From the NCBI GenBank assembly GCA_943354475.1, contig CALRBT010000001.1, positions 23,807-87,806 of the forward strand: DNA of 64,000 nt, read 5' to 3'. Positions 1,069 to 10,745 of this stretch are shown here, piece after piece; position 1 is the stretch's first letter, and every line of letters begins with the position of its first letter. Source of the stretch: Parcubacteria group bacterium (GTDB lineage Bacteria; Patescibacteriota; Minisyncoccia; Phycocordibacterales; CALRBT01). The notes under the pieces are model-generated. The model worked only from the letters and a program-made list of their open reading frames with translations, did not search any database and was not told the origin of the DNA. A program made the translations under genes and the position numbers.

Positions 1069-1740
1069 GTGCCAGTATATAAAAAAGTAAATAAAAAGTT
1101 TTTTAAAATGTGGAGCCAGGAAATGGCATACGTACTTGGTTTTTTTGCTGCGGATGGATATATCACAGTGAACAGAAGGGGTGGACAATTTTGGTGCATA
1201 CAAATTGTTGATAAAACACTTCTCATGCAAATTAAAAAAAATATCGGTTCTGATCATAAAATTAGCGAGCGGAATCGTGGGGGAAACGAAAGCACGATAT
1301 ATCGGCTACAGATTGGCAGTATTGAGATGTGTGACGATTTACGAAAGTTAGGCTTTACCGAGAGAAAAACGAAGAGTCTGGCGGTTCCAAATGTTCCAGG
1401 GGAATATCTGGGAAGCTTCACTCGAGGATATTTTGATGGGGATGGAAATATTTGGCTTGGATATTTACACAAGGAAAGAGGTGTACCAACATTGTCTCTC
1501 CATGTAGCTTTCACTTCAGGTTCAGGAGATTTTTTAAGTACCTTACAGCTTAGATTAAGAGAGATAGGTGTACATGGTGGTAGTTTGGTGAGGCCTAAGG
1601 AAAACTACCATCGATTACAGTATGGTCTTCGTGACTCTTTGAAATTATACGAATTTATGTATAATGGCCTAGATACATCGAAATTATTCCTGAAAAGGAA
1701 AAAAGATGTATTTGAGAAGTATATACGTATGCGGCTGTAG
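1069..1740 (+). CDS. LAGLIDADG homing endonuclease (double-motif type)
   Basis: Two LAGLIDADG-like motifs, LGFFAADGYI and RGYFDGDGNI, separated by about 100 aa; the last 10 nt overlap the tRNA 5' exon at 1731. Confidence 0.8.
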   Translation: MPVYKKVNKKFFKMWSQEMAYVLGFFAADGYITVNRRGGQFWCIQIVDKTLLMQIKKNIGSDHKISERNRGGNESTIYRLQIGSIEMCDDLRKLGFTERKTKSLAVPNVPGEYLGSFTRGYFDGDGNIWLGYLHKERGVPTLSLHVAFTSGSGDFLSTLQLRLREIGVHGGSLVRPKENYHRLQYGLRDSLKLYEFMYNGLDTSKLFLKRKKDVFEKYIRMRL

Positions 1741-2023
1741 CTCAACGGTAGAGCACTCCCCTGTAGATATTGCAGCTTTCTGTCGAAAGGGCAGATTGAA
1801 ACTCTTTGGGATATCGGTGAAGGCTAAACTAGTCGCCAATCTGGTAACTGGCATGCGAATACCGAGGGAACCCCTCCTTACAGGGAGGGGGCGCCGTAGA
1901 GACTAGATACCGAAGCACCTACTTGTACATTCTGTACTTATGGTGAAGATATAGTCCACGCCATTATGAAAATAGTGGATAAGTGCACGGGAGAGGCCGT
2001 GGGGTCAGCACCCATCAGCCGCG
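1731..2023 (+). tRNA. Putative tRNA-Asp(GTC) interrupted in the anticodon loop by a group I intron (exons 1731-1764 and 1986-2023)
   Basis: 5' exon gcggctg-ta-gctc-aacggta-gagc-a-ctccc-ctgt has an ideal acceptor and D-arm. 3' exon cac-gggag-aggcc-gtggg-gtcagca-cccat-cagccgc-g has a 7/7 acceptor complement. The spliced anticodon loop ctGTCac equals the canonical tRNA-Asp loop. The T-loop is non-canonical (G54, G58), which lowers confidence; Ala(TGC) is the alternative splice solution. Confidence 0.45.
1765..1985 (+). ncRNA. Group I self-splicing intron (tRNA-type, IC3-like), no internal ORF
   Basis: R-element-like gtagagactaga and S-element aagatatagtcc (P7 strands) are present. P9 hairpin ccattat-GAAA-atagtgg, terminal omega-G at 1985, a P1 candidate ctgt|agatatt-gcag with a U.G pair at the splice site, and an aaaggg P4-like segment. 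Confidence 0.6.
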
Positions 2024-5800: not shown

Positions 5801-5873
5801 GCCAGAGTAGCTCAGTTGGCAGAGCATTTCACTCGTAACGAAAAGGTCGGCGGTCCGATTCCGCCCTCTGGCT
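5801..5873 (+). tRNA. tRNA-Thr (anticodon CGT)
   Basis: Acceptor gccagag/ctctggc (7/7), D-arm gctc-agttggca-gagc, anticodon loop ctCGTaa (A31.C39 mismatch), T-arm ggcgg-tccgatt-ccgcc. Confidence 0.75.
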
Positions 5874-5874
5874 C

Positions 5875-6759
5875 ATGGAAAAAGAAAAAATACAAAAACG
5901 AATTACAGAAATCGAGGCGATGATGTCGGAAGGGAATTTCTGGCAGGATAAAGTCTTGGCGCAATCTCTAGTTAGAGAAATCCAAGAACTCAAAGAGCTC
6001 GAATTAACTGGCGGTGAAGGTGGGAAGTATGACAGAGGCGACGCTATTATCACCATCTTCTCAGGCGCAGGTGGGGATGACTCCGAAGATTTTTCTCGCA
6101 TCCTTCTTGAGATGTATCAGAAATACTTTCGCAAGAAGAATTGGGATGTTCGGGTAATCCATAGCAACGAGAATGACCACGGTGGGTATCGCAACATTAC
6201 TATTGAAATCCACGGTCGCGGTGTCTACGGCACAATCAAACACGAGTCTGGAGTGCATCGTCTGGTGCGCATCTCACCCTTTAATGCTAAGAAGCTTCGA
6301 CACACTTCGTTCTCGATGGTCGAGGTTATTCCAAAATTTGAAAAAGTAGATGAGTTCGTTATTCCTGAAGATGAGATTGAGGTAACGATGGCACGCTCGA
6401 GTGGTCCTGGAGGACAAAATGTTAATAAACGCGAGACTGCTGTCCGTATGGTGCATTTGCCAACCAAACTCTCGGTTCATGTCGAATCAGAACGCTCGCA
6501 GGCACAGAACAAAGAGAAAGCGCTTGAAATCCTCGGTGCCAAAATATATCGACTTCAAGAGGACGAGCGAATTGCAAAAGAGAAAGGAATGTATATCAGT
6601 AAAACAACCGACGCAGCGTGGGGAAATCAGATACGCTCCTATGTAACCCATCCGTACAAAATGGTCAAAGATCACCGAACCAATGTTGAGGTGAACAACG
6701 TAGAGAAAGTGTTTGACGGAGAAATCGATGAATTCATCGAAGCAGAAAAAGCTTTATAA
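5875..6759 (+). CDS. prfB: Peptide chain release factor 2 (SPF and GGQ motifs); short N-terminus, no programmed +1 frameshift site
   Basis: SPFNAKK (RF2 tripeptide motif), SGPGGQNVN, and a 'HRLVRISPF' / 'TNVEV' core. The ATG lies 2 nt after the tRNA discriminator, and an in-frame TAA inside the tRNA prevents any upstream extension. Confidence 0.85.
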   Translation: MEKEKIQKRITEIEAMMSEGNFWQDKVLAQSLVREIQELKELELTGGEGGKYDRGDAIITIFSGAGGDDSEDFSRILLEMYQKYFRKKNWDVRVIHSNENDHGGYRNITIEIHGRGVYGTIKHESGVHRLVRISPFNAKKLRHTSFSMVEVIPKFEKVDEFVIPEDEIEVTMARSSGPGGQNVNKRETAVRMVHLPTKLSVHVESERSQAQNKEKALEILGAKIYRLQEDERIAKEKGMYISKTTDAAWGNQIRSYVTHPYKMVKDHRTNVEVNNVEKVFDGEIDEFIEAEKAL

Positions 6760-10648: not shown

Positions 10649-10719
10649 TGCGGGATCGTCTAATGGTAGGACACATCCCTCTGGAGGATGGTATCTAGGT
10701 TCGAGTCCTAGTCCCGCAG
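10649..10719 (+). tRNA. tRNA-Gln (anticodon CTG)
   Basis: Acceptor tgcggga/tcccgca, 3-bp D-stem gtc/gac, anticodon stem catcc/ggatg with loop ctCTGga, T-arm ctagg-ttcgagt-cctag, discriminator G. Confidence 0.8.
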
Positions 10720-10745
10720 CCGTGGTCACAAAATAGACAATAGGT

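Follow-up and report, generated by a model that had tools for sequence, protein, structure and literature searches.

Group I introns that interrupt tRNA-Asp and tRNA-Asn genes of Patescibacteria between anticodon positions 35 and 36 were described, together with their self-splicing, by Nakagawa et al. 2026 (mSystems, PMC13011429). In that study a tRNA-Asp 35/36 intron from a Microgenomatia genome spliced itself precisely in vitro with no protein, and annotation programs were found to miss such tRNA introns (PMC13011429). Three tRNA-Asp intron cases occurred in 95 complete genomes, and Table S3 lists a Paceibacteria tRNA-Asp intron in GCA_023898525.1. Endonuclease genes were sought only inside the introns, most tRNA introns were without them, and horizontal transfer was judged limited (PMC13011429). 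In phages, free-standing endonucleases partner introns in collaborative or trans homing: cyanophage S-PM2 pairs F-CphI with its psbA intron, and in T4 mobE partners the nrdB intron, whose I-TevIII is defunct (PMC3984707, PMC2988022; PMC2790892; PMC6083498). Two further precedents are the I-TevI operator, which shares 15 of 20 positions with the homing site and overlaps the enzyme's own promoter, and several free-standing endonuclease genes of T4 in which promoters of the next host gene are embedded, a feature considered to aid their retention (PMC2988022). Here we analyse a 64,000-nucleotide stretch of contig CALRBT010000001.1, a chromosome segment of a bacterium of the Patescibacteria (Paceibacteria) with a GC content of ~42% (hereafter the window), in which a tRNA-Asp(GUC) gene is split by an intron at 35/36 and directly preceded by a gene for a LAGLIDADG endonuclease. 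Comparison with related loci makes it probable, if far from certain, that the latter is a free-standing homing endonuclease gene targeting the tRNA-Asp gene, that an intron or site mutations confer immunity (collaborative homing), and that the enzyme probably represses its own gene.

All features described below lie on the forward (+) strand of the window. The 5′ exon of the tRNA (1731–1764) comprises the acceptor 5′ strand, the D-arm, the 5′ strand of the anticodon stem and loop positions C32–U35. The 3′ exon (1986–2023) supplies C36-A37-C38, the 3′ strand of the anticodon stem, the variable loop, the T-arm (loop GUCAGCA), the acceptor 3′ strand and the discriminator G; a CCA end is not encoded. 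Both halves had been delimited in the initial annotation of the window, and their coordinates prove exact, with gcggctg complementary to cagccgc and an anticodon stem of ctccc and gggag. The splice product foreseen there is also recovered: ARAGORN at default settings calls tRNA-Asp(gtc) on 1731–1764 joined in silico to 1986–2024, and the procedure works likewise for 40 related loci. The intron-aware search recommended in the same place fails, as ARAGORN makes no tRNA call on the unspliced gene with intron mode on or off and yields tRNA-Asp only after in-silico splicing. For comparison, the canonical intronless tRNA-Asp gene reads GGTTAGAGCACCCGCCTGTCACGCGGG.

The 221 nucleotides between the exons (1765–1985) are a group I intron, as identified by a covariance-model match and by covariation. 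A cmsearch run with the Rfam model Intron_gpI (RF00028), proposed as a check on the initial annotation, matches 1769–1978 over the full model (1–253) with 40.9 bits and E = 1.2e-8. Although the E-value is far beyond chance, the score is under the curated gathering threshold of 50 bits, so the intron is absent from a gathering-threshold scan. Homologous introns in two relatives score 49.5 and 49.3 bits with RF00028, and the intron is missed by standard scans because the whole lineage scores just under the cut-off. P1 is formed by 1761–1765 pairing with 1771–1775, the core strings are GTAGAGACTAGA (1896–1907) and AAGATATAGTCC (1946–1957), a P9 hairpin with a GAAA loop spans 1961–1978, and a G ends the intron at 1985; the hallmarks claimed initially (R and S segments, P9 hairpin, terminal G) are thus all where they had been placed. 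The intron has no ORF (open reading frame), again as first noted, and is too short for an endonuclease.

Covariation was assessed with RNAalifold on 38 distinct homologous introns with 12-nt exon flanks. The consensus recovers the tRNA anticodon stem, P1, P2, P3, a hairpin in the P5 region, P6 and P8, and 28 of its 46 pairs keep pairing despite changes on both sides. P1 has the form CUGU(A)/(U)GCAG, with U·G at the 5′ splice site in 38/38 introns and four compensatory A-U to C-G changes at the adjacent pair. The 3′-terminal G is invariant, as are the P7 strands AGACUA and UAGUC; P7 and P9 were not scored separately. By analogy with the related tRNA-Asp 35/36 intron that splices without protein (PMC13011429), the window intron would be expected to self-splice, which would restore a functional tRNA.

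Immediately upstream lies a free-standing two-motif LAGLIDADG ORF (1069–1740; 223 aa, GTG start). It matches Pfam LAGLIDADG_3 (PF14528) with 51.6 bits against a cut-off of 22.5 (E = 1.1e-13), and both motifs are present, as FAADG and FDGDG; the double-motif gene recognised at the outset, with its 10-nt overlap of the 5′ exon, is thereby confirmed. Its TAG stop codon (1738–1740) is U8-A9-G10 of the tRNA-Asp, and 24 nt separate the end of the ORF from the start of the intron. The GTG start at 1069 is supported by the N-terminal sequence PVYKKVNK..FFK.W, which is conserved in homologues. Among 98 full-length ORFs, 97–98 retain the catalytic Asp in each motif, and intron-bearing and intronless genomes do not differ in this. 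An AlphaFold model (pLDDT 79.6, pTM 0.75) predicts a single-chain two-domain LAGLIDADG fold whose top PDB matches are I-Tsp061I, I-AniI and I-DmoI (Foldseek E = 5e-10 to 4e-7), with similarity also to the bI3 maturase; a sequence-only PDB search with the ORF protein returned nothing at E <= 0.01. Sequence and predicted structure together make the product a plausible active endonuclease.

Homologues of the ORF number 2403, every source-named one from Patescibacteria (CPR) and mostly from Paceibacteria, and at least 494 GTDB species representatives encode one. We compared two samples of loci. The first was protein-guided, with 85 loci fetched via the ORF protein, 80 of them classifiable. The second was independent of the ORF: metagenomes were scanned with the 5′ exon pattern of tRNA-Asp genes of the kind found in the window, here termed type A and defined by a non-canonical T-loop (GGGG-UCAGCA-CCC) always paired with a short D-loop (AACGGUA), which gave 120 loci, 96 of them informative. 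The ORF lies directly upstream of tRNA-Asp(GUC) in 80/80 species loci of the first sample. It runs into the tRNA in 72 of them; the overlap measures 10 nt in 49 loci and 15, 21 or 23 nt in others, where different stop codons inside the tRNA are used. Half of these tRNA genes (40) are intronless and 40 carry a 194–260-nt insert exactly at 35/36. Among the 96 type-A metagenome loci, 55 are without the ORF; it is full-length or nearly so in 31, and in 10, scored as ORF-positive (10/41), a C-terminal fragment beside the tRNA is all that is left. Intron and ORF occur together in 24 loci, the ORF alone in 17, the intron alone in 5 and neither in 50 (odds ratio 14, p = 2e-7). With near-identical loci collapsed the counts become 21, 16, 5 and 43 (odds ratio 11, p = 9e-6), and two of the five loci scored as having the intron alone hold ORF remnants. 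The presence of the ORF predicts an intron in the tRNA-Asp gene.

By this comparative pattern the ORF is a homing endonuclease gene in a cycle of invasion, decay and loss; it does not behave like a housekeeping gene. A vertical history could be read into the same data, with an endonuclease gene and an intron inserted once in an ancestor of the Paceibacteria, lost piecemeal and no longer mobile, so that the associations reflect shared ancestry. The order ligA-gatC-gatA-hypothetical-tRNA-Met-tRNA-Met-ORF-tRNA-Asp, kept in the source genome and in three compared loci (L001, L003 and L004), accords with such a relic, as do the remnants and losses and the limited horizontal transfer of tRNA introns inferred by Nakagawa et al. 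(PMC13011429). We nevertheless consider it unlikely, for the ORF is better conserved than the essential GatA between the same genomes. Between source and L001 the ORF is 77% identical, GatA 59% and the neighbouring hypothetical protein 48%; for L003 the values are 65%, 61% and 35%, and across the compared genomes they range over 65–77%, 57–61% and 34–48%, respectively. The catalytic residues are intact nearly everywhere, and type-A loci that closely resemble one another differ in whether they have the ORF. In a neighbour-joining tree (we used it for sister-pair contrasts only) the ORFs form a star-like pattern with long tips, tRNA types are intermixed across it, and intron state flips between sister ORFs along with the integrity of the site described below.

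The protein might instead have been domesticated, as a splicing maturase or as a regulator or processing factor of tRNA-Asp, and so not act as a homing enzyme. Its strong conservation (mean column identity 62% over 25 homologues), its fixed position beside one tRNA, the predicted likeness to I-AniI and the bI3 maturase, and a tRNA-like block upstream that could serve as a regulatory binding site would all suit such a role. Yet the ORF is present in the 40 of 80 species loci that have no intron, most type-A loci lack it and keep their tRNA-Asp, and it decays to remnants. The catalytic acidic residues, which maturases often lose, are retained here. A related tRNA-Asp 35/36 intron self-splices without protein (PMC13011429). 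Domestication is accordingly a reading to which we attach very little weight.

The tRNA-like block is the 22-bp sequence GGTTAG-gtgaatac-CCTGTCAC at 1031–1052, just 5′ of the endonuclease start, a candidate pseudo-target or operator that mimics positions ~18–38 of canonical tRNA-Asp. It is followed by a TATAAT box (1057–1062), 6 nt 5′ of the GTG start, which recurs across loci and may serve as the −10 element of a leaderless mRNA for the endonuclease. In most loci the sequence just 5′ of the start reads tGGTTAG-N8-CCTGTCAC-N3-4-TATAAT-N6-[A/G]TG, and the consensus ...CCTGTCAcg.g.TAtAAT-N6-[A/G]TGCC recurs. GGTTAG-N8-CCTGTCAC is the canonical tRNA-Asp stretch from D-loop to anticodon loop (GGTTAG AGCACCCG CCTGTCAC) with exact spacing over 22 bp, which is the usual size of a LAGLIDADG target. 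When the 14 specified positions are compared in 74 distinct upstream regions, agreement is complete in 19, with one mismatch in 17 and two in 8. The block holds a nearly constant position relative to the ORF; its central 8 bp are AT-rich or −10-like and DNA further 5′ is unconserved. In one sub-variant TGTATAAT forms the block centre with ATG directly after. The block accompanies the endonuclease gene in the independent metagenome sample, occurring in 18/25 loci with a full-length ORF, 1/10 with an ORF fragment and 0/53 without the ORF. Because flanks and central 8 bp vary while the block stays, we take it to be under selection; on this comparative evidence it is a selected part of the endonuclease cassette. 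The simplest reading is that it is a binding site of the endonuclease overlapping its own promoter, as in I-TevI (PMC2988022).

If the 22-mer is taken as the recognition site, genomes that carry the enzyme must not hold it intact in their tRNA-Asp gene. In the window the left 19 bp of the resident copy, CGGTAG-AGCACTCC-CCTGT, lie at 1746–1764, and the intron splits off the last 3 bp (CAC, 1986–1988). Among distinct tRNA-Asp sequences of ORF-bearing species whose mature form has a perfect 22-mer, 25/27 are intron-split and 2 are intronless; where the site is imperfect, 38/48 are intronless and 10 have the intron (odds ratio 47.5, p = 9e-10). Put differently, 38 of 40 intronless tRNA-Asp alleles in ORF-bearing genomes are mutated at the site. 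With type A left out, perfect sites are found with the intron in 26 cases and without it in 2, and imperfect sites with it in 2 and without it in 32. The imperfections are varied and include an extra T (GGTTAG-T-AGC, which makes the spacing 9), the D-loops GGTTAA.., GGCTAG.. and TGGTAG.., and C32U. The ORF tree offers ten sister pairs with unlike intron states; in seven, the member with the intron has a perfect site and the member without it an imperfect one, and the reverse occurs in none. The tRNA-Asp of all 5426 E. coli genomes searched has the perfect site, which is, by this measure, the ordinary bacterial state.

A rival reading places the target elsewhere. The enzyme might recognise the junction at the 5′ edge of the tRNA, where its gene is inserted, and not the anticodon region; the intron would then be a co-conversion passenger 35 bp away, and the block a fossil of the tRNA half duplicated at the first insertion and reused as a promoter. 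The ORF invariably abuts the 5′ end of the tRNA, and ORF and intron co-occur yet are separable, as co-conversion tracts would predict. In the manner of a fossil, the similarity of block to tRNA extends past the anticodon loop, G39 and G41 also matching, and the block stays GGTTAG in type-A genomes, not tracking the resident tRNA type. We still find a junction target rather improbable. DNA 5′ of naive tRNA-Asp genes is unconserved, which would leave half of the target arbitrary, and 14 loop-derived positions with 0–1 mismatch in 36/74 lineages, next to a central 8 bp and upstream DNA that vary, are not what a neutral fossil would leave. The D-loop-site mutations of intronless alleles in ORF-bearing genomes would also be left unexplained.

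The 3′ end of the ORF appears to hold a second promoter. At 1639–1665, 65 nt 5′ of the tRNA, the codons for L-K-L-Y-E-F-M-Y-N contain TTGAAA-N15-TATAAT, a candidate promoter of the tRNA-Asp gene. The series L-K-L-Y-x-F-M-Y-N recurs near the C-terminus across ORFs with a marked codon preference: the Leu codon is TTG in 49/53 ORFs, against 20% TTG for Leu elsewhere in the same ORFs, and TAT is used in 54/54 and AAT in 53/54, with the Tyr codon in the spacer free (TAC 28, TAT 24). In six ORF-less loci the motif alone survives, exactly 8 nt 5′ of tRNA-Asp. These patterns suggest that the endonuclease element supplies the tRNA promoter. A generic scan for sigma-70 promoters and terminators was no richer in hits than a scan of shuffled sequence, and it called neither candidate promoter, that at 1057–1062 for want of a good −35 element and that at 1639–1665 because of its 15-nt spacer; both proposals therefore rest on conservation and codon bias.

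The collaborative homing to which the arrangement was initially likened fits the comparative data, namely co-occurrence at odds ratios of 11–14, the promoter mimic and an intron that tracks the intact site, from which we infer the following mechanism. The tRNA-Asp(GUC) gene would be occupied by two cooperating selfish elements, the intron and an endonuclease gene inserted flush against the tRNA 5′ end and reading into the tRNA as far as the U8-A9-G10 'TAG'. The enzyme would recognise ~22 bp of the intronless gene, GGTTAG-N8-CCTGTCAC, a stretch nearly universal in bacteria that spans the intron site, and would cut a naive allele within about positions 18–41. Repair from an occupied allele would copy both elements: the endonuclease gene, which lies ~27 bp left of the presumed cut, and the intron, which lies ~8 bp right of it. 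The host's own tRNA-Asp would be immune where the intron splits the site or D-loop mutations alter it. Autorepression of the I-TevI kind would probably act through the site copy with an AT-rich, presumably uncleavable centre that overlaps the endonuclease promoter, and the tRNA promoter in the ORF 3′ end would favour retention by making clean deletion costly. More speculatively, an RNase P cut of a co-transcript (1730/1731) would remove the stop codon and further limit endonuclease expression. The fuller claim, of a free-standing LAGLIDADG enzyme that targets a universal 22-bp tRNA-Asp stretch, represses itself via a non-cleavable promoter decoy and resists deletion by supplying the tRNA promoter and borrowing U8-A9-G10 as its stop, an arrangement undescribed in cellular organisms, we put forward tentatively, as quite possible but short of probable.

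Several points weigh against this mechanism. Of the 22 bp proposed as the site, the intron changes no more than the final 3 (CAC to AGA), which makes it uncertain that the intron protects; the true footprint may reach further 3′, where G39 and G41 match in the mimic. The window tRNA, as a type-A gene, has two mismatches in the left hexamer (CGGTAG instead of GGTTAG), yet intron and ORF are both present, and type-A alleles with the ORF and without the intron are common (17/41), so the perfect-site rule does not cover this lineage. All association statistics count loci and not independent evolutionary events, the sister-pair test comprises ten contrasts only, and the test of site against intron covers ORF-selected loci, not ORF-independent alleles of the canonical type B. 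The conserved synteny means that much inheritance could be vertical. Lastly, the candidate tRNA promoter at 1639–1665, uncalled by the generic scan, has a spacer of only 15 nt.

The unusual T-loop of the window tRNA bears on whether the gene is functional. The canonical T54, Psi55, C56 and A58 are absent as a set, the loop GUCAGCA having G54 and G58, and the initial annotation had accordingly suspected a defective or unusual tRNA, with a decayed pseudogene and a good copy elsewhere as its fallback. The lack of T54 and A58 and the silence of ARAGORN on the unspliced gene would be in keeping with decay. Against it, the type-A combination of T-loop and matching short D-loop is common to 15 species loci, with and without the intron alike, and to the type-A metagenome loci, where 91 of the 120 matched by the 5′ exon were scored as intronless or as having a type-A 3′ exon; type-A stems are all intact, with compensatory changes. 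The gene occupies the syntenic tRNA-Asp position, being orthologous to an intronless tRNA-Asp in L003, where the order tRNA-Met, tRNA-Met, ORF, tRNA-Asp, tRNA-Thr, tRNA-Thr, prfB matches the window. The intron core is intact, and a second tRNA-Asp gene is absent from the 64-kb window. On these comparisons the odd T-loop is a conserved lineage trait and not decay, and a pseudogene can be set aside as extremely improbable. Other tRNA genes of the window also have unusual T-loops, namely tRNA-Met at 18–92 and 671–745 (UGCAAAU and UGCAAGU, with G55) and tRNA-Thr(CGU) at 5801–5874 (UCCGAUU), which score ~62 bits with the Rfam tRNA model. Taken together, the loops of the Met, Thr and Asp tRNAs suggest relaxed or altered T-loop rules in the lineage.

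The intron itself is not new. It forms one family with the intron of GCA_023898525.1, the two having the core strings GTAGAGACTAGATACC and AAGATATAGTCCACGCC in common, and by this likeness belongs to the published Paceibacteria tRNA-Asp intron family. In our samples ~70 loci carry an intron in tRNA-Asp (40 species loci and 29 metagenome loci). Identical core strings occur at 35/36 in tRNA-Asn(GUU), tRNA-Asp(GUC) and tRNA-Tyr(GUA) genes of different Patescibacteria (Table S3, PMC13011429). In all of these tRNAs the loop starts CUGU (5′ exon end ...CUGU|) and pairs with the GCAG guide of the intron, and the shared intron lineage fits occasional jumps between G34-U35 tRNAs. Where tRNA-Asn introns carry an endonuclease, its gene is of the HNH and not the LAGLIDADG type (PMC13011429). 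Three of the 38 aligned introns (L044, L073 and L079) are divergent, with a different P3–P6 region, TTCAGAGACTAT in place of CGTAGAGACTAG and an extra hairpin after P7; this sub-type suggests at least two intron lineages at one tRNA-Asp site.

The surroundings of the locus are chromosomal. RF2, FtsE, FtsX, CTP synthase and uracil-DNA glycosylase are encoded just 3′ of the split tRNA-Asp, and the other tRNA genes of the window (Met, Met, Thr, Thr, Gln, Thr) are scattered. An identical ORF protein is found on metagenome contigs in the order ligA-gatC-gatA-hypothetical-(tRNA-Met x2)-ORF-...-prfB-ftsE-ftsX. It is encoded, for example, in the ENA assemblies ERZ27280257 and ERZ27280259. A phage origin, an idea arising from the tRNA-rich window and the homing endonuclease gene, was rejected given prfB, ftsE, ftsX, pyrG and the uracil-DNA glycosylase gene, and a search of a phage collection with the window gave no meaningful match. 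The prfB ORF (5875–6759) starts on the base after tRNA-Thr(CGU). Its 294-aa RF2 matches Pfam PCRF from profile position 95 and is thus N-terminally short compared with a typical RF2; the L003 homologue, at the same place, has 293 aa.

Structured elements of ~110–270 nt follow several tRNA genes (Met, Asp, Thr), in the window at 750–885 and 2081–2231, the latter preceded by a long hairpin (2015–2090), and also in 13 of the related loci (L011, L049, L057, L062, L065, L069, L072, L088, L117, L118, L130, L177 and L199). Each ends in an exact copy of the last 15–26 nt of the preceding tRNA (the 3′ part of the T-loop and the 3′ strands of T-stem and acceptor). At its start stands the sequence complementary to this copy, interrupted by a conserved hairpin whose loop is CUGC (..AAACUGCUUU..). 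The extended 'T stem' so formed encloses two hairpins, with the motifs CCGGAG.., GGGGUCGCG.. and UGUGACC, or with GGGUACUGAA.. in a second variant. Compared with shuffled sequence the folds have a much higher stability (z = -9.0 and -3.7), and the elements have no Rfam match. In the fetched loci the last 16 nt recur within 450 nt downstream for 19/548 tRNAs. Candidate identities for these elements are a tRNA-like minihelix RNA, an attenuator-like device and a mobile element targeting tRNAs. The repeat of the tRNA 3′ end (2006–2028 / 2213–2235) had been considered as a cassette end or integrase att site and was rejected as part of the endonuclease system, because a similar repeat and structured element follow tRNA-Met, tRNA-Thr and tRNA-Asp genes with no endonuclease gene nearby. 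A partial duplication different in kind occupies the ~70 nt after tRNA-Gln(CUG) (10649–10721): a 22-nt spacer and then a direct copy of its 3′ ~45 nt, from anticodon stem to 3′ end, which may be an integration or recombination scar. Palindromic units (AAAAAAGCTYAAATTYRCGTCGC-hairpin-GACGTRAACTG) lie between tRNA genes at 160–270 and 883–982. A 33-nt direct repeat (D1; 750–782 / 978–1010) duplicates the start of the post-tRNA-Met element just 5′ of the endonuclease cassette. It had prompted the idea that the ORF lies inside a second intron or other split RNA, which was rejected, no support being found.

If the proposed mechanism holds, its consequences reach beyond this window. The endonuclease gene for tRNA-Asp introns would sit next door and not inside the intron, as the ORF does in ~200 related loci, in contrast to the conclusion of low mobility reached in 2026 (PMC13011429). 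Collaborative homing, so far described for phages, would also operate in free-living or symbiotic bacteria whose genomes are very small, and the tolerance of an intron in an essential, apparently single-copy tRNA gene would be explained. A selfish nuclease would be shaping tRNA sequence, with D-loop variants as resistance alleles, and across Paceibacteria its pressure would drive both D-loop evolution in tRNA-Asp and the spread of tRNA introns. A large and diverse LAGLIDADG family (>2000 members) with a defined candidate target could be useful for meganuclease engineering. As to annotation, an intron just under the Rfam threshold and a tRNA missed by standard tools lower the apparent completeness of genomes.

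The introns of Nakagawa et al. are closest to the window intron, sharing the site U35|C36, the tRNA-Asp host gene, the intron family and their escape from standard annotators (PMC13011429). The difference lies upstream: the LAGLIDADG gene that adjoins tRNA-Asp here, or any free-standing or adjacent one, is not mentioned in the text of that paper. Full-text literature searches found no report of a LAGLIDADG gene adjoining tRNA-Asp, and the arrangement appears to be unreported. I-Tsp061I, I-DmoI, I-AniI and I-OnuI resemble the enzyme in their two LAGLIDADG helices, each with a catalytic Asp, and in the two-domain fold predicted for it (Foldseek probability 1.00, TM ~0.6–0.7); they differ in sequence (12–23% identity) and in being intron- or intein-encoded, whereas the window enzyme is free-standing. 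A PD-(D/E)XK homing endonuclease likewise targets the anticodon region of a bacterial tRNA gene with a group I intron, but it is encoded inside the intron and belongs to another enzyme family. T4 SegB is also encoded by a free-standing homing endonuclease gene, lies between tRNA genes and targets a tRNA gene region (PMC2988022), but it is a GIY-YIG enzyme in a phage tRNA cluster with no intron. Several free-standing endonuclease genes of T4 have embedded promoters for the gene that follows, as TTGAAA-N15-TATAAT would provide here.

With I-TevI the locus shares a homing-site-like sequence that overlaps a promoter just 5′ of the ORF; here 14/14 outer positions match the proposed homing site and the centre differs. 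In I-TevI, a GIY-YIG enzyme, binding and catalysis reside in separable domains, whereas a LAGLIDADG enzyme would need altered central base pairs to bind without cutting. The collaborative homing systems of phages offer the nearest parallel in organisation, with a free-standing endonuclease gene beside a group I intron that is either ORF-less or holds a defunct endonuclease gene. There, as in our model, the target coincides with the intron site, the intron protects the donor and the elements are co-inherited. The enzymes differ, F-CphI having an Endo VII-type catalytic motif and mobE being of the HNH type, against LAGLIDADG here. Further differences are that the ORF overlaps its target gene, that the two elements flank a 34-bp exon, and that target and immunity are inferred from comparison of loci. 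The host is a cellular bacterium with a reduced genome and the target a tRNA gene, not a protein gene, so that a flanking endonuclease with a decoy site and this pattern of immunity would constitute a new variant of collaborative homing.

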